Shown piece by piece: positions 3,275 to 51,498 of a stretch of DNA of 64,000 bases (position 1 is the stretch's first letter; each line of letters begins with the position of its first letter). The notes beneath the pieces were generated by a model, which worked only from the letters and a program-made list of their open reading frames with translations, ran no database searches and had not been told where the DNA came from. Made by a program: the position numbers and the translations under genes. This DNA is from Escherichia coli (GTDB lineage: Bacteria > Pseudomonadota > Gammaproteobacteria > Enterobacterales > Enterobacteriaceae): the NCBI RefSeq assembly GCF_044647545.1, contig NZ_CP172818.1, one strand, 5' to 3'.

Positions 3275-3658
3275 TTATTCATAGCGTCTGCTACGTGCGG
3301 GACGAGGTCGGGTGTACCAGGCAATGCTGCCTAACAATGCCCCGACCAGAGCCATAAATAAAAATCCGACCAGTGCCCCTAACCACTTTCCCGCGGTAGA
3401 GCCTAAATCGCTTTCAAATCCCGACACGGGGGCATCGGGGATCCGGCTCATCACCCAGATGTAACGCGCCATTGCCCAGACGAAATAGCCACACCATGTA
3501 TAGAAAGCCCACAAAGCCAGTTTGCCACCAGGGCTGCGAGAGAGTCTCTCTTCCATCTTTGTCGAACCGTATTCCATTTTGAGATAACCCGGAAAATTCA
3601 GACTTAGTACTATTATGTGATAAAAATCACATTTTTCCACATTGAATGAGCCAGTCAA
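3275..3658 (-). CDS. yedR: Small inner-membrane protein; start codon uncertain (internal MEYGSTK start possible)
   Basis: 127-aa ORF with two hydrophobic segments; position matches yedR. Confidence 0.5.
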   Translation of the reverse strand: MTGSFNVEKCDFYHIIVLSLNFPGYLKMEYGSTKMEERLSRSPGGKLALWAFYTWCGYFVWAMARYIWVMSRIPDAPVSGFESDLGSTAGKWLGALVGFLFMALVGALLGSIAWYTRPRPARSRRYE

Positions 3659-3870
3659 GACTCAATCATTTTTTGAACAAATAGATAATTTTTGCGCAAC
3701 GGCAGTGAATACAAGAAAAATCGTTTTGAGCGATTTTATTTATCTTTGATATCGGCTTTATTAATTCATTCAATCAATATATTAGCACTGATTACAATTA
3801 TACCTTTTTATTATTCTGTGTCATGATGCCTCCGTTATTAGCCTTTTATCGTCTTGTTTATATTTTTTGG

Positions 3871-44120: not shown

Positions 44121-44342
44121 ATGAAAATTATCACCCGTGGCGAAGCCATGCGTATTCACCGTCAGCATCCGGCATCCCGTCTTTTTCCGTTCTGTACCGG
44201 CAAATACCGCTGGCACGGCAGTGCTGAAGCTTATACCGGTCGTGAAGTGCAGGATATTCCCGGTGTGCTGGCCGTGTTTGCCGAACGCCGTAAGGACAGT
44301 TTTGGTCCGTATGTCCGGCTGATGAGCGTCACCCTGAACTGA
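44121..44342 (+). CDS. yeeT: DUF987-family small protein
   Basis: 73-aa ORF MKIITRGEAMRIHRQHPASRLFPFCTGKYRWHGSAEAYTGREV... Confidence 0.75.
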   Translation: MKIITRGEAMRIHRQHPASRLFPFCTGKYRWHGSAEAYTGREVQDIPGVLAVFAERRKDSFGPYVRLMSVTLN

Positions 44343-44416
44343 AAGTGGGAATTCTGCTCATCAGAATTATCACCACTACCGAACCATTCTTACCGATTTT
44401 CTGTAAGGATTTTATC

Positions 44417-44785
44417 GTGTCAGACACACTCTCCGGGACAACACATCCCGACGACAATCACGACCACCCCTGGTGGGGACTACCCTGCACCGTGACGCCC
44501 TGTTTCGGCGCCCGTCTGGTGCAGGAGGGTAACCGCTTGCATTACCTTGCCGACCGCGCCGGTAACAGAGGCCTGTTCAGCGATGCAGATGCGTACCCCC
44601 TGGACCAGGCCTTTCCGCTGCTGATGAAACAACTGGAACTCATGCTCACCAGCGGTGAACTGAATCCCCGCCATCAGCATACCGTCACACTGTATGCGAA
44701 GGGGCTGACCTGTGAAGCTGACACCCTCGGCAGCTGTGGTTACGTTTATCTGGCTGTTTATCCGACGCCCGAAACGAAAAATTAA
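44417..44785 (+). CDS. cbeA: Type IV antitoxin (cytoskeleton bundling-enhancing factor)
   Basis: GTG start; VSDTLSGTTHPDDNHDHPWWGLPCTVTPCFGARLVQEGNRLHYLADRAG... matches CbeA/YeeU. Confidence 0.8.
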   Translation: MSDTLSGTTHPDDNHDHPWWGLPCTVTPCFGARLVQEGNRLHYLADRAGNRGLFSDADAYPLDQAFPLLMKQLELMLTSGELNPRHQHTVTLYAKGLTCEADTLGSCGYVYLAVYPTPETKN

Positions 44786-44873
44786 CCCACCGGAATAACC
44801 TTCTGCTCCGGCCTGGTGCTTTCACCACGCCACTTTTCCATTTTTATCTCTGCATATCAGGAAAATCTTCAGT

Positions 44874-45246
44874 ATGAAAACATTACCCGTATTACCCGGG
44901 CAGGCGGCGTTCTCGCCCGTCTCCTGTTACCATCTGGCAGATACTGCTCACCCGATTACTGGACCAGCACTACAGCCTTACGCTGAATGACACACCGTTC
45001 GCCGATGAACGCGTGATTGAGCAGCATATTGAGGCAGGCATTTCACTGTGTGATGCAGTGAACTTTCTCGTGGAAAAATACGTACTGGTACAACTGACCA
45101 GCCGGGATTCAGCGCCGGAACCCGTCTCAGTTAATCAACAGCATTGATATCCTCCGGGCTCGCCGGGCAACCGGTCTGATGACCCGCAGCAACTACAGAA
45201 CGGTAAATAACATTACCCTGGGTAAGTATCCGGAGGCGAAAAATGA
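44874..45246 (+). pseudogene. cbtA: Type IV toxin CbtA (YeeV), frameshifted at least twice
   Basis: [12 protein letters not shown] then frame lost; second frame [54 protein letters not shown]; third frame DILRARRATGLMTR.NYRTVNNITLGKYPEAK runs into yeeW. Confidence 0.7.
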
Positions 45247-45439
45247 AATGACGCTGGAAGCCGACAGCGTTAACGTACAGGCGCTGGATATGGGGCACAT
45301 TGTCGTTGACGTCGATGGTGTTAATCTCACTGAACTGATTAATAAAGCCGCTGAAAACGGTTATTCACTCCGCGTGGTGGATGACCGTGACACTACCGAA
45401 ACACCGGCAACTTCTGCCAGCCCTCATCAGTTGCCGTAA
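45247..45439 (+). CDS. yeeW: Small prophage protein
   Basis: MTLEADSVNVQALDMGHIVVDVDGVNLTELINKAAENGYSLRVVDDRD...; in this sequence its frame is continuous with the last cbtA fragment. Confidence 0.6.
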
Positions 45440-45479
45440 GACAATACAGTGATACAGAGTATAATGCCATTAGCCACAG

Positions 45480-45492
45480 AAAAAAAAAAAAA
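45480..45492. repeat. A13 homopolymer
   Basis: 13 consecutive A downstream of yeeW. Confidence 0.9.
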
Positions 45493-45605
45493 CAGCACTG
45501 TTGTCCTGTATTAAACAGGCAAGAGAAGATATCCATACCCTGCGCCATCTGCAGCTTCTGCACCAGAACCGGTGAATCTCACTCAACAGACTTCATTTCC
45601 CCTGA

Positions 45606-45637
45606 CGCCAGCCTGAATACAGCTGGCGTTTTCATTT
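45606..45637 (+). terminator. Intrinsic-terminator-like hairpin
   Basis: CGCCAGC-ctgaataca-GCTGGCG followed by TTTTCATTT. Confidence 0.45.
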
Positions 45638-45733
45638 ATATACAGAAAGGAAAACCGATAATAATGGAATGGACGCCCCGACCATGAAGCAACGGTAGGA
45701 TATTACTGATAAACCTTCCAGTGGAGGTGCGTT

Positions 45734-45813
45734 ATGGCCGTTTTAACGATTAGCATTGACCTGACAAAAAATGAATTCCAAATCCACGGTCTGGGTAGGA
45801 ACAGAAAAATCTA
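45734..45813 (+). pseudogene. N-terminal remnant of an IS110-family-like transposase (26 codons then stop)
   Basis: MAVLTISIDLTKNEFQIHGLGRNRKI resembles the xGIDxxKxxFQ.HG start of IS110-family transposases. Confidence 0.35.
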
Positions 45814-45889
45814 AGCTCAGAAAACGGATTAAAGTAAGCGTCAACGGAGCACCATATTGACGCTTATTTATTGGTGAGAACTACGTTCC

Positions 45890-46246
45890 ATGGCAGGAGT
45901 TCGTCAACACGGTTGGAGGGCCATTCCGGCAGTATGCTCAGAATATGGCGCAGATACGCTTCCGGATCGATACCGTTCAGACGGCAGGTGCCTGCTTTTC
46001 CGGCAACAAGCAGGAATCTCAGCGCTGAAGCAGGAATTAGAGGTAAAAACGCCCTACCGGGCCATGAATCACCCGGTCATTGGAGTAGTAACCAAAGCAG
46101 ATTTAGCCAGCATGGAACAAATATCTTTGGTGAAATGTTGGTTACGGGAAGCTGGAGCGCACAACGTGTTAGTAACCAGTGCGGTTAATAACAATGGAGT
46201 TACAGAACTTTTTGCCTTGCTGCATACAGAAGAAGGCTGCCGCTAA
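45890..46246 (+). pseudogene. yoeF: EutP/PduV-family GTPase C-terminal fragment
   Basis: 118-aa ORF ending ...HPVIGVVTKADLASMEQISLVKCWLREAGAHNVLVTSAVNNNGVTELFALL; lacks N-terminal P-loop. Confidence 0.55.
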
Positions 46247-46346
46247 TTTCGATAGGTTCTCAGATGAGAATGATGACGGTGATACACAGATAAGAATCAA
46301 TGAGCAATGAGGGTTGCCGGGCAACCCTCATTGAATAAAACAGGAA

Positions 46347-46676
46347 TTACTTCGCTTCGCCGTTTTTCATTTCGCCCATAGCTTTCAGCTTTTTGGAGAT
46401 ATCGCGGCGTTCTTTGGAGAGCTCGGCATTTTTGATGATGTAATCGTCAACGCGATCTTCATAGTCACCTTTCATGCTGGCGATGATGCCCTGGATTGCT
46501 TCAACGCTCATCCCTGGCTTGATGTAATCGCTCAGGTTGTCCAGCAACAGGACGCGCTTCTGGTTGTCACGGATCTTTTTCTCAACGTCCTGAATTTCAC
46601 GTTGCAGTTTGTTCTTACGACGGAACAGACGAACAAATTCCAGTACGTCCTGGAATGAAGGCTTGGTAGTTTCCAT
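46347..46676 (-). CDS. yeeX: DUF496-family protein
   Basis: Internal start [42 protein letters not shown]... Confidence 0.8.
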
Positions 46677-46847
46677 TTTTATACCCCTGATAATGTGAGA
46701 GTCGGATTCGTTTAAGCAACCGCTATTCGATAGGGCCAACATTACTCATAGCTGCCGCAGATGACAATGCTTTTATCCCTTTTCACTATCATACCCTTTA
46801 TCCTTGCTGAATCGAAGCAGCAGCAAGATGATTCTGAAGTTCAGGAA

Positions 46848-47906
46848 TTATTTGCGCAAGGCCCGGCAAATCAGATTCGATAGCAACTCAAGCTGATGCG
46901 CCGTTTCCATGTTCAGCCACACATAACCATAGATTGGTGTTTCCACAACCTTCAGGTCATGGTGGTTATTAAGCAACAGACGCAGCTCTTCCACAGCATC
47001 GTTCAATTTTTCCGTATTGGCAAAAACCGGCTGCGGATTACCTTCGTACAGCGCATGAACAAGGCTCAGCAGTATTTGCTGCATCATGTGCTGGGTATCA
47101 CGAAGTTTTTGCGCGTTCAATAACACGAAATGGCTGGGGCGCGTGGCCCAGTATGCATTGATTTGCAACTCCAGCATACAAACCAGATTGCGGTTAATGG
47201 TCTGGATACCTTCATATATCGATTTTGGAATACGGGTTTCTTTGCTGGCGGGCGCAATCAGCCCACGCATTTTCACGGCATCGGTCAGCAGTTTTTGTAG
47301 ATGGCTTTCCAGACGTGGGCGTTCGAGTAAGTTCGGTGAGAATGCAGATTGATAGACCCGATTATACTCGGTCAGACTTTTCGCCAGTTGAATGCGCCAG
47401 TGGATGAACGCCCGTTGTGGCCAGATACCGGTAAACAACATTGCCAGTAAAGAGCCGAGGATCACATCGCCGCTTCGCCATAACGCCGTATCAATTTCAC
47501 CTGTCGGGGAACCCACAACAATTGCCAGCGTCACCCCAATCAATAATCCTTGATACGGTTTCTTGCCCAGCGCCAGCCAACCGCAAAGAAACATCGCCGC
47601 CGCGCACCAGACTAACATCAGCGGTAACGAAATTAACTCCAGTTGCAGAGCGATAAGACCTAAAATCGAACCCAACACCGTACCGCCAATACGTTCGAAG
47701 GCACGAGGGACAACGTTCCCCCAGAACGAGATTGGCCCCATAATCACCACCATGGTGACCAGCGGCCAGGTGCTTTCCGGGATAGTAAACAGGCGGATAA
47801 TGAGAAAAGTGAGCAGGAATGCCAGCGCGACCCGAGTACCATGCACAATGCGGTAATGGCGGTATACCCGGATTTCAAACGGGCTTAATGACTTATCGGC
47901 ACGCAC
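46848..47906 (-). CDS. yeeA: FUSC-like inner-membrane protein
   Basis: 352-aa polytopic ORF matching YeeA. Confidence 0.8.
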   Translation of the reverse strand: MRADKSLSPFEIRVYRHYRIVHGTRVALAFLLTFLIIRLFTIPESTWPLVTMVVIMGPISFWGNVVPRAFERIGGTVLGSILGLIALQLELISLPLMLVWCAAAMFLCGWLALGKKPYQGLLIGVTLAIVVGSPTGEIDTALWRSGDVILGSLLAMLFTGIWPQRAFIHWRIQLAKSLTEYNRVYQSAFSPNLLERPRLESHLQKLLTDAVKMRGLIAPASKETRIPKSIYEGIQTINRNLVCMLELQINAYWATRPSHFVLLNAQKLRDTQHMMQQILLSLVHALYEGNPQPVFANTEKLNDAVEELRLLLNNHHDLKVVETPIYGYVWLNMETAHQLELLSNLICRALRK

Positions 47907-48103
47907 GCAGAAACTCCGTAATGAAGATTAAAAGCGCTCATAACACATCTGTCGGCCAGAAGGCGCGCCTCTGAGTTATCCGACGGACATACCGGGAACA
48001 GTGTAATTTCCCGGCAGGAGCGAAAAATTTGAAAGGCGCATCTTACTCTTTTCGCTTTCAAAAAAAGAGTGGTCTTCGCGTCAACACACCGCCCTGAGAT
48101 GAA

Positions 48104-48577
48104 TTAGTGATGTTTTGGCTGCACCGCAACATACATTTCGATATCCCAGTACCCATCTTCCGCGCCATTGTTCAAGTAAACCTCGAAGCAGGGCTTTGGT
48201 AACATTTCATAGGCACTGTCCTGCAAGAGGCTATTAAAGAACTGATACCAGGGTTTAGCAAAATCATCACCGACTACACGAGCCACCGCCACCGCATACT
48301 GACCACCTGAAATTTCTGTCAGAATGACGCCCTCACTGTTTTCGGGGAGCGTAAAGTTATTCGGCACCGTCACGACGGTGTCGCAGCGTAATTTTTCGGC
48401 GGGTGTTTCATCTGGATTGTCGTAATAGACAGCAACCCACTCCTTCGGCACAATATTTTTGCTATCTATCCACATCATCAACTGCTCAAAGCCTTTCTTT
48501 ACCGTCTGTTCCCACGGGCCAACGAGATGGAAACCTGCAACGGTACGTTTATCTTCCTGCTTAATCTCGTAGTTCAT
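48104..48577 (-). CDS. sbmC: DNA gyrase inhibitor (SOS-induced)
   Basis: 157-aa [50 protein letters not shown]...; LexA box upstream. Confidence 0.85.
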
Positions 48578-48591
48578 GACGCCCCCATTAA

Positions 48592-48611
48592 TACTGTTTT
48601 TATATACAGTA
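48592..48611. promoter_or_regulatory. LexA (SOS) box upstream of sbmC
   Basis: TACTGTTTTTATATACAGTA is a perfect palindromic CTGT-N8-ACAG LexA box. Confidence 0.75.
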
Positions 48612-48695
48612 TAGTTGCAATATTAAAACCACAAGGAATGAGTGTTGATTATGCGAGCAGACTCGCACTCCTGCCAGTCTGCTGCAAAAGAAAGG

Positions 48696-49868
48696 TCAGG
48701 CCTTATGGTGGAAATAATCACTCAGCCGGGAAAACATGCTGCCTTCCCCGACAGATTCCAGGGTAACCAGCGGCCAGTGCGCCACCTGTTTATCACGGTC
48801 GTAAAGTTCAATTTCCCCTACCCGCTGATGGGCGCTAATTGGCGCGGTGAGTTCTTTACCATCAAGGGTATATTTGGCTTTGATATGTGGAATTTCGGCT
48901 TTCGGTAGCACCATCCAGAACTCTTGTTCCGTTCCCAGGGCGATATTTTCTTTATCGCCATACCAGATGCGTTCCGTACCAACCTTTTTCCCACGGTGCA
49001 AAATTTGCACCGTAGTAAAGTTTTGTTGACCCCAACGCAGTAATTTTCTTGCCTCTTCCTCACGACCTTTTGCGCTGTCAGCCCCCATTACCACTGCAAT
49101 GAGACGACGCTGCCCATCTACAGCCGAAGCAATGAGATTAAACCCGGCACCAGAAGTATGACCCGTTTTCAGGCCGTCAACATTCATGGTTTTATCCCAC
49201 AATAACCCGTTACGGTTTTGCTGGGTGATACCGTTCCAGGTGAGGCTTTTCTCACTGTACATATGATAAAACTCGGGCTCGCCGTGGATGATAGCGCGAG
49301 AAAGCACAGCTAAATCATAAGCCGAGCTATGCTGGCCAGGTGCATCCAGACCATGCACTGTTTCAAAATGCGTATCCTTGAGATGCAGCTTCTCGGCATA
49401 GTTGTTCATCATTTCAACAAACTGCCGTTGCCCACCGGCAATATAGTCAGCCAGTGCAACACAAGCGTCATTTCCGGAATCCACAATTAAACCACGGCTT
49501 AAATCACGTACCGATACGCGATCGCCCTCTTTCAAAAACATCAGTGAAGAACCGACAAACACCGGATTATCTTTCGCCCACGCATCACGCCCCACGGTGA
49601 CAATATCGTCTGGCGTAATGCGATGACTATCGATAGCACGATCCACGACATAGCCCGTCATCAGCTTTGTCAGGCTGGCGGGATTGCGCTGTTGATGCTC
49701 ATTACCCGCGGTGAGAATCTGACCGGTGGTGTAATCCATCAATACCCAGGACCCGGCATGAATCTCTGGAGGCTGAGGTGAAAAAGGAATGTTTTCCGCC
49801 GCAAAACCAGACGATAAATTAAAAACGAACAAAGAAGCAGCAATAATAAGACGGCGTTTCAACAGCAA
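48696..49868 (-). CDS. dacD: D-alanyl-D-alanine carboxypeptidase (PBP6b)
   Basis: ORF with signal peptide, SxxK (SLTK), SGN and KTG motifs. Confidence 0.85.
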   Translation of the reverse strand: MLLKRRLIIAASLFVFNLSSGFAAENIPFSPQPPEIHAGSWVLMDYTTGQILTAGNEHQQRNPASLTKLMTGYVVDRAIDSHRITPDDIVTVGRDAWAKDNPVFVGSSLMFLKEGDRVSVRDLSRGLIVDSGNDACVALADYIAGGQRQFVEMMNNYAEKLHLKDTHFETVHGLDAPGQHSSAYDLAVLSRAIIHGEPEFYHMYSEKSLTWNGITQQNRNGLLWDKTMNVDGLKTGHTSGAGFNLIASAVDGQRRLIAVVMGADSAKGREEEARKLLRWGQQNFTTVQILHRGKKVGTERIWYGDKENIALGTEQEFWMVLPKAEIPHIKAKYTLDGKELTAPISAHQRVGEIELYDRDKQVAHWPLVTLESVGEGSMFSRLSDYFHHKA

Positions 49869-50070
49869 ACCCTCAGGTGTTTCAAATAGCTGTTCTTTTT
49901 ACGGAAATACTTATGAACTGGCTGGAATAAAGTGCAAGAAAATGTGACTACTATCTCATTTTTATCTGACATGATCTGTTGCCACTCGCTGCCAAATTGT
50001 CGCGCTAAAGCTGATTAGCACGGTGATATTTGATACTCTGGCAGACAGCAGAAATAACGGATTTAACCTA

Positions 50071-51498
50071 ATGATGAATGACGGTAAGCAACAACCTACC
50101 TTTTTCTTTCACGATTACGAAACCTTTGGAACGCACCCCGCGTTAGATCGCCCTGCACAGTTCGCAGCCATTCGCACTGATAACGAATTCAATGTCATCG
50201 GCGAACCCGAAGTCTTTTACTGCAAGCCCGCGGATGACTATTTACCCCAGCCTGGAGCAGTATTAATTACCGGTATTACCCCGCAGGAAGCACGGGCGAA
50301 AGGAGAAAACGAAGCCGCGTTTGCCGCCCGTATTCACTCGCTTTTTACCGTACCGAAGACCTGTATTCTGGGCTACAACAATGTGCGTTTCGACGATGAA
50401 GTCACACGCAACGTTTTTTATCGTAATTTCTACGATCCTTACGCCTGGAGCTGGCAGCATGATAACTCGCGCTGGGATTTACTGGATGTTATGCGTGCCT
50501 GTTATGCCCTGCGCCCGGAAGGAATAAACTGGCCTGAAAATGATGACGGTCTACCGAGCTTTCGCCTTGAGCATTTAACCAAAGCGAATGGTATTGAACA
50601 TAGCAACGCCCACGATGCGATGGCTGATGTGTACGCCACTATTGCGATGGCGAAACTGGTAAAAACGCGTCAGCCACGCCTGTTTGATTATCTCTTTACC
50701 CATCGTAATAAACACAAACTGATGGCGTTGATTGATGTTCCGCAGATGAAACCCCTGGTTCACGTTTCCGGAATGTTTGGGGCATGGCGTGGCAATACCA
50801 GCTGGGTGGCACCGCTGGCGTGGCATCCTGAAAATCGCAATGCCGTAATTATGGTGGATTTGGCAGGAGACATTTCACCATTACTGGAGCTGGATAGCGA
50901 CACATTGCGCGAGCGTTTATATACCGCAAAAGCCGATCTTGGCGATAACGCCGCCGTTCCGGTTAAGCTGGTGCATATCAATAAATGTCCGGTACTGGCC
51001 CAGGCGAATACGCTACGCCCGGAAGACGCTGAGCGTTTAGGGATTGCTCGTCAACACTGCCTGGATAACCTGAAAGTGTTGCGCGAAAACCCGCAAGTAC
51101 GCGACAAAGTTGTGGCAATTTTTGCAGAAGCTGAACCGTTTACACCATCAGATAATGTAGATGCACAGCTTTATAATGGCTTTTTTAGCGACGCCGATCG
51201 TGCAGCAATGAAAATCGTGCTGGAGACTGAACCGCGTAATTTACCGGCTCTGGATATCACCTTTGTTGATAAGCGTATCGAGAAACTCCTGTTCAACTAC
51301 CGCGCCCGCAACTTCCCCGGCACGTTAGATGACAACGAGCAGCAACGCTGGCTTGAGCACCGCCGCCAGGTCTTCACACCCGAGTTTTTACAAGGCTATG
51401 CAGAAGAGATTCAGATGCTGGCGCAGCTGTATGCCGACGATAAAGAAAAAGTGGCGCTGTTAAAAGCGCTTTGGCAGTACGCGGAAGAGATTGTCTAA
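50071..51498 (+). CDS. sbcB: Exodeoxyribonuclease I
   Basis: Internal start MMNDGKQQPTFFFHDYETFG... (DEDDh exonuclease); track ORF extended 16 aa upstream. Confidence 0.85.
   Translation: MMNDGKQQPTFFFHDYETFGTHPALDRPAQFAAIRTDNEFNVIGEPEVFYCKPADDYLPQPGAVLITGITPQEARAKGENEAAFAARIHSLFTVPKTCILGYNNVRFDDEVTRNVFYRNFYDPYAWSWQHDNSRWDLLDVMRACYALRPEGINWPENDDGLPSFRLEHLTKANGIEHSNAHDAMADVYATIAMAKLVKTRQPRLFDYLFTHRNKHKLMALIDVPQMKPLVHVSGMFGAWRGNTSWVAPLAWHPENRNAVIMVDLAGDISPLLELDSDTLRERLYTAKADLGDNAAVPVKLVHINKCPVLAQANTLRPEDAERLGIARQHCLDNLKVLRENPQVRDKVVAIFAEAEPFTPSDNVDAQLYNGFFSDADRAAMKIVLETEPRNLPALDITFVDKRIEKLLFNYRARNFPGTLDDNEQQRWLEHRRQVFTPEFLQGYAEEIQMLAQLYADDKEKVALLKALWQYAEEIV

Follow-up and report, generated by a model that had tools for sequence, protein, structure and literature searches.

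Elements of the IS1111 type encode a DEDD transposase together with a guide RNA, called seekRNA or bridge RNA, that comes from their long right end (PMC11187229; PMC11208160). We took the definitions of the IS1111 group and family from these two papers (PMC11187229; PMC11208160), including a transposase of 330–350 aa with the motif GL-P----S(t)G and subterminal inverted repeats of ∼7–17 bp. The IS621/IS110 group belongs to the same DEDD recombinase superfamily, and its choice of target and donor is likewise RNA-guided (PMC11208160). The window analyzed here, a 64-kb stretch of Escherichia coli DNA, holds the truncated end of one such element in the interval between yeeW and yoeF.

At the right edge of a CP4-44-like island, the yeeW–yoeF interval consists of unremarkable genomic debris. 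Taken jointly, its features are very probably stacked inert relics: a broken DUF957 gene with an A13 tract, a terminator hairpin, and two dead insertion sequence ends, one of IS1111/IS110 type and one of IS66 type. The relics are essentially already annotated, and the remnants in the window are capable of neither transposition nor guided recombination. The left neighbor, yeeW (45245–45439, plus strand), is the N-terminal remnant of a DUF5983 gene according to RefSeq annotation of the aligned loci in K-12 and FDAARGOS_497; intact DUF5983 genes are 489 bp. A short allele, the type in the window, occurs in 3,142 of 5,426 complete E. coli genomes and a long allele in 698 of them (∼13%). The window is collinear with a long-allele locus (L003) at 45300–45833 (L003 4669–5192) and again at 45993–46400 (L003 6504–6911). 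Between these segments, 159 bp of the window stand where L003 has 1,311 bp.

The original prediction had combined a 13-A homopolymer, a hairpin, and a 26-codon ORF into the remains of a second insertion element at the right edge of the island. All three features exist where they were placed, and an IS110-family stub is indeed present a few hundred bases inside the edge, but the three do not form one element. The A13 tract (45480–45492) lies within a DUF957 pseudogene remnant (45464–45575, plus strand), annotated by PGAP at the aligned position as "DUF957 domain-containing protein, incomplete," and is not part of an insertion element. The remnant is an internal-deletion allele in which an N-terminus MPL(A/T)TE.. 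is joined to ..LLSCIKQAREDIHTLRHLQLLHQNR and a stop codon, the N-terminal fusion being read from comparison with the sequence of L005, an island free of insertion sequences. From 45493 onward, the window is 90.6% identical to the intact DUF957 gene of L005; the K-12 sequence matches it from that position apart from the A-run and a few SNPs. The tract corresponds to the A3 of K-12 and FDAARGOS_497 plus 10 A, which may have been gained by slippage, and additionally frameshifts a pseudogene that was already internally deleted. It is the sole A/T run longer than 8 within the window, and ∼0.003 runs of the A13 type are expected from base composition. Among the matches listed, the top full-length ones from E. 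coli all span 1041 bases against the 1051-base query.

The A13 tract could be an artifact of sequencing or assembly rather than a real allele. None of the sequences searched (5,426 complete E. coli genomes, GTDB species representatives, and JGI metagenome contigs) has more than A3 here, and the tract belongs to a paralogous part of the island present in multiple copies (median of three places per genome), where assemblies can be unreliable. Neither a run of A5 or longer with the flanks of A13 nor the A13 haplotype of the window was found in JGI metagenome contigs, and GTDB species representatives yielded one match at the site, an A3 on a probably contaminated MAG contig. However, homopolymer errors usually involve one or two bases, not 10, and expansion within a pseudogene carries no cost. 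The surrounding 1.3 kb also reads as a coherent, natural-looking divergent allele, unlike noise. Left of 45642, substitutions favor synonymous and third-codon positions, a bias for which we rejected random noise as the source of divergence, and the ratio of transitions to transversions is ∼2. We therefore consider an artifact possible but doubtful. As an allele, A13 has no evident function and matters at most as a possible warning about the quality of the source assembly.

An intrinsic-terminator-like hairpin with a T tract (45604–45637, plus strand) begins 28 nt past the DUF957 stop codon. Its stem, GACGCCAGC/GCUGGCGU(U), spans 45604–45630 with eight G/C-rich pairs and a closing G-U, and is followed by UUUUCAUUU to 45637. 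The fold has an energy of −16.1 kcal/mol (z = −5.6), and 0 of 200 shuffled sequences are as stable. This hairpin had been described as an orphan terminator, a label that does not hold: it separates DUF957 from DUF4942 in intact islands that have no insertion sequence (L005 and L006; −18.9 and −20.8 kcal/mol, with variation in the loop and stem top) and is thus neither orphan nor part of an insertion sequence but native to the island. At the level of sequence, it has the G+C-rich stem-loop, U-rich tract, and position downstream of a gene that characterize rho-independent terminators. A consensus terminator scan did not list 45604–45637, presumably because the simple stem has a 9-nt loop and the scan allows 3–8. 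If active at all, the hairpin is most likely an intrinsic terminator, as predicted from its sequence, acting after the yeeW/DUF957 transcript.

To the right of the hairpin, the window stays homologous to the uninterrupted islands L005 and L006 only as far as the left half of an insertion target (45645–45662, plus strand), which consists of a remnant of the DUF4942 RBS (GAAAGGAAAACCGAT) and a left core copy, AAT (45660–45662). The window then retains 171 bp of an IS1111-type element (45663–45833). The first 71 nt (45663–45733, plus strand) are the noncoding left end of an IS1111-type member of the IS110 family, delimited by ends from six Providencia stuartii copies. Within it, the left subterminal inverted repeat (45669–45680; ATGGACGCCCCG) matches ATGGTCGCTCCT at 9 of 12 positions. 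The remainder (45734–45833, plus strand) is the 33-codon 5′ stub of a transposase pseudogene with a +1 frameshift in an A5 run (45805–45809), identified by DNA identity with the long allele and by alignment to P0001, an intact 344-aa IS110-family transposase.

The 26-codon ORF at the start of this stub (45734–45814; MAVLTISIDLTKNEFQIHGLGRNRKI) had been likened to the N-terminus of IS110-family transposases. A short ORF may match by chance, and the 33-aa stub alone scores 12.1 bits on NF033542 (E 0.08, profile positions 1–27), whose curated cut-off is 140 bits; a Pfam search of the stub gave no match, and the window lacks the PF01548 and PF02371 pair required of the family. Three lines of evidence nevertheless refute a chance match, to which we assign a vanishingly small probability. 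Across 192 bp, 45642–45833 is 99.5% identical to the start of pseudogenes from strains 13P484A and 23CRST022. These carry the annotation "IS110 family (RNA-guided) transposase" and represent the 1,029-bp frameshifted gene that the long allele has at this locus. When rebuilt, the long-allele product scores 227.3 bits on NF033542 (E 2.7e-67, positions 2–342 of 343). Read through the +1 frameshift, the stub is identical to the N-terminus of P0001 at 23 of 33 residues (70%; pairwise E 8e-13), and the surviving ∼33 codons include the aspartate of ..IDL... In addition, the upstream 71 nt can be aligned to left ends of intact elements in five further genera, among them Salmonella, Providencia, and Photorhabdus. 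The likeness to IS110-family transposases, on which the original prediction staked itself, is thereby borne out through the same-locus pseudogene and P0001. Because the stub is weak alone against the family profile, we base the assignment to the IS110 family on its DNA continuity with the long allele. The window holds a fragment of an IS110-family member, not a member.

The same ORF could be read as a genuine small-protein gene encoding a domesticated N-terminal transposase peptide. Its ATG is preceded by GGAGGTG, a promoter-like TTTATA-16-GATAAT lies just upstream, and 3,877 E. coli records share 45640–45870 at 99% identity or more. Yet this level of identity equals that of the adjoining noncoding relics and the flanking chromosome (100% to FDAARGOS_497 from 45643 onward), which indicates recent common descent and not selection, and promoter-like sites are no commoner in the region than in shuffled sequence. 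Compared with intact relatives, the ORF is cut short by the +1 frameshift, and many more frameshifts and stops are found in the long allele. K-12 RefSeq has no annotation for the stub at 45663–45833. A small-protein gene is hence very unlikely.

The copies in E. coli cannot define the ends of the element because all matches to the deleted 1,311 bp are at this one locus, some of them further broken by an IS3-family element or IS100. The ends came instead from intact relatives in other genera. The closest are in P. stuartii (P0005), Salmonella enterica (P0002), Photorhabdus (P0003), and a Logan contig (P0001). These elements are ∼1.38 kb and encode 344-aa proteins with 68–76% identity to the relic over 100% of its length. 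A widespread plasmid-borne relative, which we take to be IS5075/IS4321, is ∼63% identical to the Providencia protein and is annotated without a name. Intact relatives possess both PF01548 and PF02371; the long-allele product has PF02371 (E 1.3e-12) and a PF01548 match (E 9e-6) of 25.9 bits, below the cut-off of 29. Six P. stuartii copies in different flanks fix the ends as AATGGAATGG... to ...GCGACCATGTAT, with TAT on each side. Intact relatives have TAT at both junctions, whereas the left core copy in the window is AAT.

The organization of the long allele and its relatives is that of IS1111-like elements, and this subtype, rather than IS110 proper, is the one to which the element belongs. 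Subtype had not been part of the original prediction. The left end is 71–79 nt and the right end ∼272 nt (L003 6122–6393; Providencia 3536–3806). Subterminal repeats are 12 bp, within the IS1111 range, and covary between Providencia (ATGGTCGCTCCT left, AGGAGCGACCAT right) and Salmonella (ATGGTCGCCCCT left, AGGGGCGACCAT right), a compensatory change; the window keeps the left copy only. The relatives' transposases, at 344 aa, carry GLVPRQYSSG or GLVP.QHSSG at residue 249. The copy of this motif in the relic long allele is degenerate (GLVPRQCFSVG), and the region is missing from the window. An overlap of ∼20 bp in homology between the left and right flanks was considered as a long target duplication and rejected: the overlap is the right end of the element itself (..AGGAGCGACCATGTAT), a sequence that looks like an RBS and ATG.

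The right end contains a conserved, predicted RNA module, with eight compensatory pairs in seven sequences in support of a shared fold, whose layout agrees at sequence level with the description of IS1111-family seekRNAs (PMC11187229; PMC11208160). The segment complementary to the top strand is ATTTAACAT in six of six relatives, and their targets are ATGTTAAAT-like. In the module, ATTTAACAT, the complement of ATGTTAAAT, lies 5′ of CATTATG, which has the same sequence as the left target plus core on the top strand. The corresponding segment of the E. coli relic, ATCTGACAT, is the exact complement of its own flank, ATGTCAGAT, at the start of DUF4942. The long allele still holds this guide–target pair, and the window holds the left junction only. 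The segment of the relic that matches the bottom strand, CATCATG, fits its left flank, GATAATG, less well than in the relatives, so the guide–target argument depends on a single segment carrying two changes specific to the relic. With about equal chance either way, the complementarity may mark the dead element as a natural case of a reprogrammed IS1111-type guide, changed from ATTTAACAT to ATCTGACAT at two positions and homing onto the DUF4942 start (T-ATG-TCA-GAT) of CP4-type islands. If so, this would be an insertion sequence specialized on the gene start of another mobile element. The fossil guide–target pair of the long allele, outside the window, is possibly a natural data point on RNA-guided retargeting and is mildly interesting as such.

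A functional guide RNA might also be sought in the window itself, in the hairpin or the sequence upstream of the stub ORF. Elements of the IS110 group such as IS621 produce a bridge RNA from the left end, ahead of the recombinase gene (PMC11208160), and the hairpin is only ∼100 nt upstream of the ATG. But the hairpin of IS-free islands occupies the same intergenic position, the hairpin of the window is outside the element, whose left end begins at 45663, and the structured, target-matching module of this clade is in the right end, which has been deleted from the window. These three observations already largely refute a retained bridge RNA or seekRNA. An Rfam scan of 45300–46300 in E-value mode found nothing credible, with three chance-level matches (snoRNA, viral UTR, and IRES) at E of at least 0.8 and far under gathering scores. 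We regard a guide RNA still encoded in the window as highly improbable.

A second insertion sequence relic, absent from the original prediction, probably truncated the first. It is the right-end remnant of an IS66-family element (K-12 yoeD, b4642; 45834–45992, minus strand), supported by PF13817 and by K-12 and PGAP annotation. The sequence from 45834 to 45890 onward thus belongs to a different, minus-strand element. The terminal repeat of the IS66 remnant begins with GTAAGCGTCAACGG at 45834, directly abutting the IS1111-type stub, and the end folds into a hairpin (45832–45869). Of its transposase, the final 42 codons are left, running from 45992 to 45867, with the stop at 45866–45864. PF13817, the profile for the IS66 C-terminal element, is matched at 58.8 bits (cut-off 30; E 5.8e-16), which places this 159-bp sequence in the family as a fragment only. 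It is 98.7–99.4% identical to plasmid copies of the IS66 family, and flanks diverge exactly at GTAAGCG, a boundary confirmed against a plasmid copy; IS66 repeats start with GTAA. Insertion sequence entries in PLSDB and PGAP carry family names only. PGAP names for partial matches include ISEc23 and the ISEc43 family.

To the right of the IS66 remnant, collinearity with the long allele resumes at L003 6504 within a 5′ remnant of DUF4942 that ends the island (45993–46068, plus strand; ∼76% identity to intact paralogues). Homology to DUF4942 runs to ∼L003 6579, and the CP4-44 feature of K-12 ends at the equivalent of ∼46063. What follows is a chromosomal remnant, the C-terminal third of a PduV/EutP-type GTPase gene (46069–46246, plus strand; PF10662, TIGR02528), for which the PF10662 match (E 1.7e-12) covers profile positions 86–142 of 143 only. 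In window coordinates, K-12 yoeD is 45864–45992 on the minus strand and yoeF (b4538) is 45890–46246. yoeF is a three-part chimera of antisense IS66, the 5′ end of DUF4942, and the C-terminus of PduV/EutP. yoeD, which has no product in K-12 RefSeq, is here an IS66-family C-terminus. A literature search on yoeD and yoeF returned nothing useful.

The homologies, junctions, element ends, and guide–target complementarity are direct observations, and from them we infer a course of events. The original island order would have been ...cbeA-cbtA-DUF5983(yeeW)-DUF957-[terminator hairpin]-DUF4942, and a deletion would have fused a shortened DUF957 to the beginning of DUF5983. In the lineage of the window, A3 in the DUF957 remnant may have become A13, shifting the frame. 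An IS1111-type element is predicted to have entered the island at a specific site, the T-ATG where DUF4942 starts (target ..CGAT-TAT-GTCAGAT..), and then to have decayed by frameshifts and stop codons. An IS66-family element would next have entered codon 34 of the dead transposase gene, an insertion expected to have an 8-bp duplication of GGATTAAA. Finally, a deletion from within IS66 into the DUF4942 remnant would have removed most of IS66 along with 1,311 bp. That 1,311-bp segment contained the remainder of the transposase gene, the right junction and the 272-nt right end encoding the guide RNA, and the initial 110 bp of the DUF4942 remnant.

The significance of these findings is small and lies in cleaning up the annotation of one E. 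coli locus in three respects: they identify yoeD as a C-terminal fragment of the IS66 family and yoeF as a chimera, and they add an unannotated 171-bp IS1111-type left end with its stub. This last relic, between yeeW and yoeD, is in most E. coli genomes, including K-12.

The long allele and its relatives share with the IS1111 family (e.g., ISEc11, ISKpn4, ISPa11, and IS4321/IS5075) a 344-aa DEDD transposase with the GL-P----SG motif, a short left end, a long downstream noncoding region, and 12-bp subterminal inverted repeats. Insertion is site-specific with a core repeat of 2–3 nt, and in the sequence of the predicted right-end RNA, the match to the top strand is 5′ of the match to the bottom strand, the two overlapping at the core. 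In contrast, the window has only the first 171 bp, that is, a degenerate left repeat and 33 codons, without a right end, guide RNA, or intact catalytic domain. The IS110 group is arranged the other way round from the present clade: its left end holds the long noncoding region and the bridge RNA, and its subterminal repeats are only 2–3 bp. Elements of Providencia, Salmonella, Photorhabdus, and the Logan contig have left and right ends and a core nearly as in the E. coli relic. However, they are intact, and multi-copy in Providencia, whereas the E. coli element is single-copy, dead, and confined to this locus. The relatives use the guide ATTTAACAT and target sites like ATTAT followed by GTTAAAT, whereas the E. 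coli relic, with the guide ATCTGACAT, is at GAT(T/A)AT followed by GTCAGAT.

At the right edge of a CP4-44-like island, the 26-codon ORF at 45734..45814 is the N-terminal stub of an IS110-family transposase, and both the identity and the position given in the original prediction are borne out. In a search with 45640-45870 (231 bp), the first 192 bp are 99.5% identical to the start of pseudogenes at the same locus (e.g., 13P484A and 23CRST022) annotated as "IS110 family (RNA-guided) transposase" and "frameshifted; internal stop". The stub aligns at 23/33 positions (E 8e-13) with the N-terminal residues of the most similar intact protein and alone matches profile NF033542 weakly (E 0.08); the stop codon that ends the 26-codon reading results from a +1 frameshift in an A5 run (45805-45809). 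Among 5,426 complete E. coli genomes, 3,142 have the short allele of the window and K-12 and 698 have a long allele (reference locus L003), every copy of which is at this one locus. The product of the long allele, rebuilt across its frameshifts before profile searches, matches NF033542 over its full length (227 bits, E 2.7e-67) and also PF02371 and PF01548. RefSeq already has an annotation for the long allele, and the kind of element is known; what is new is small, namely an IS1111-type assignment, exact ends, a decomposition of yoeD and yoeF, and a fossil match between guide and target.

The two alleles are collinear on either side of a replaced segment. Window positions 45300-45833 correspond to L003 4669-5192 and 45993-46400 to L003 6504-6911, and between them 159 bp in the window stand in place of 1,311 bp in L003. 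The 159 bp are an IS66 remnant, equivalent to K-12 yoeD, that begins at 45834 with GTAAGCGTCAACGGAGCACC... and was missed by the original prediction, whose second insertion element holds for the IS110-family stub only. The minus strand at 45992-45867 encodes GTCRLNGIDPEAYLRHILSILPEWPSNRVDELLPWNVVLTNK followed by a stop, a peptide that matches PF13817, the C-terminal element of IS66 (E 5.8e-16). Identity to IS66-family copies on plasmids is 98.7-99.4%, and the flanks of these copies part exactly at GTAAGCG. In the simplest history, an IS66 element would have inserted into codon 34 of the dead transposase gene, and a single deletion would then have removed sequence from within IS66 up to L003 6503. 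A second strong hairpin (45832-45869; -16.9 and -15.8 kcal/mol on the two strands) covers the IS66 terminal repeat and the transposase stop codon; on the plus strand it is followed by TTATTTATT and could pass wrongly for a terminator.

The pieces found to the right of 45834 indicate that yoeF (45890-46246) is a three-part chimeric ORF assembled from unrelated sequences. These are the antisense of the IS66 remnant, a 5' fragment of DUF4942 (45993 to ~46068; ~76% identical to paralogues), and the C-terminal third of a PduV/EutP GTPase (~46069-46246; PF10662, profile positions 86-142 of 143). The locus is also an insertion hot spot in other strains (L007 3680-5660, L008, and L009 3659-5000). Some have an IS100 (IS21 family) or an IS3-family element in or beside the right end of the IS1111-type relic, and in one, IS1203 replaces the left part of the island. 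In a different island near kpsF, a partial "IS110 family transposase" gene is downstream of an intact DUF4942 gene (L005 4191-4373).

The other features originally predicted between yeeW and yoeF are present as described, and the sequence at 45440-45890 is confirmed, but the hairpin and the A13 tract were wrongly attributed to an IS. The terminator-like hairpin at 45604-45630, followed by TTTTCATTT, starts 28 nt 3' of the DUF957 stop codon (45573-45575) and has a folding energy of -16.1 kcal/mol (z = -5.6; 0 of 200 shuffles were equally stable). It is not listed by a simple terminator scan, presumably because of the 9-nt loop left by its plain stem. The same hairpin, with a conserved stem and a variable loop, is in the 84-bp DUF957-DUF4942 spacer of sister islands (-18.9 and -20.8 kcal/mol). 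Its presence in intact sister islands shows that it is not an orphan and belongs to the island rather than to an IS. We infer its activity as a putative terminator from form alone.

The A13 homopolymer (45480-45492) lies in what is left of DUF957, an allele with an internal deletion of its own. Translations of L003 and the window, read with the intact gene of sister island L005, show that N-terminal codons M/V-P-L-T-T-E-T-A are joined to C-terminal ..LLSCIKQARED..LHQNR and a stop. The site reads A3 in K-12 and FDAARGOS_497; the window has an additional 10 A that shift the frame of the remnant. No other A/T run in the 64 kb exceeds eight, and ~0.003 runs like this tract are expected from base composition; the second-longest run in the window is a C10 homopolymer at 20621-20630. 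The expansion is absent from the other sequences compared. All top full-length matches listed among the 5,426 genomes have 1041 bases versus 1051 in the window, the single match in a search of species representatives has the A3 form, and two metagenome scans, one for a run of A5 or longer at the site and one for the window's haplotype of this region, gave no match. The A13 tract may be either a real allele or an assembly error. A metagenome-assembled genome labelled "Segatella copri" includes a 2.5-kb contig (L027 1954-1987) with E. coli island sequence in the A3 form, probably through binning contamination.

This stretch forms the right end of a CP4-44-type island, where the annotated gene order in K-12 is yeeW, yoeD (a minus-strand pseudogene), yoeF, and tmaR, and the CP4-44 feature stops at a position equivalent to ~46063. 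In a close relative, PGAP annotates an additional incomplete DUF957 gene just 3' of yeeW and names the yoeD equivalent "transposase domain-containing protein". Intact sister islands have the order DUF5983, DUF957, DUF4942. The sequence to the right, starting at 45643, has 100% identity to that of E. coli FDAARGOS_497, SMS-3-5, and others (to these two over 4.6 kb, 45643-50300), and across 44300-45641 (cbeA, cbtA, yeeW, and the DUF957 remnant) the best identity among the 5,426 genomes is 92.8%. Substitutions in the latter segment have a Ts/Tv of ~2 and an excess at third-codon and synonymous positions, and these differences look natural; its other indels are ordinary allele differences. The divergence ends ~20 bp short of the point where sister islands cease to be paralogous; a boundary at this position suggests a past exchange with a paralogous island, by recombination or gene conversion. 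Within this segment, cbtA (the CbtA toxin gene, 44874-45147) is split by frameshifts and is also frameshifted in FDAARGOS_497, and the ORF of its antitoxin, cbeA (within 44345-44785), appears intact. Directly after the yeeW stop, 45438-45465 resembles a promoter by consensus match only (AAGACA-16-TATAAT, 10/12); its -10 is perfect solely through a G-to-A change at 45464 that is specific to the window, with TATAGT in other strains.

Ends of the element were defined from six Providencia stuartii copies in unrelated flanks. The Providencia element starts AATGGAATGGTCGCTCCT.., has its ATG after 76 nt, and has a right end of 271 nt that terminates ..TTGGCAAACAGGAGCGACCATGTAT; TAT is at both junctions and targets are CATTAT|GTTAAAT-like. 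In the window, the left core copy AAT is at 45660-45662, the left end at 45663-45733, and the left subterminal repeat, with 9/12 matches, at 45669-45680. The subterminal repeats are 12 bp and covary between Providencia and Salmonella. A promoter formed at the junction of ends is typical of this IS family, and right end joined to left end in the Providencia sequences would give TTGGCA-16 nt-TATAAT, consistent with this. Intact relatives in Salmonella, Providencia, Photorhabdus, Vibrio, and metagenomes have proteins of 344 aa (68-76% identical) with the motif GLVPRQYSSG. The IS1111 group is defined by a short left end, a long right end, and long subterminal repeats, with a transposase of 330-350 aa that has GL-P----SG (PMC11208160; PMC11187229). 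The relatives agree with this group in end layout, subterminal repeats, transposase length, and motif, and by these features the relic and its relatives are classed as IS1111-type.

As judged from uninterrupted islands, the element inserted at ..AAAGGAA(A/T)A(T/C)CGAT-TAT-GTCAGAT.., the ribosome-binding site and T-ATG start (M-S-D-I..) of DUF4942. Right ends of seven relatives share a conserved fold with 8 compensatory pairs, and this structured RNA module is in the long allele, outside the window (L003 6164-6393). The guide segments and right end are within the 1,311 bp absent from the window. No functional mobile element is left in the window, which lacks the transposase body, right repeat, and guide RNA. 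In 6/6 relatives, the guide-like segment ATTTAACAT complements top strand ATGTTAAAT, and targets are ATGTTAAAT-like. Only in the relic is this segment ATCTGACAT, which complements exactly the ATGTCAGAT of the relic's right flank at the start of DUF4942. Two relic-specific changes that both match the target are unlikely through decay alone (~1e-3 by rough estimate). The second segment of the relic, CATCATG, is a poor fit to left flank GATAATG; in the relatives, the CATTATG after ATTTAACAT is identical to the left target and core as read on the top strand. This order of segments in the right ends of the relatives, top then bottom and overlapping, is like that of IS1111-family seekRNAs.
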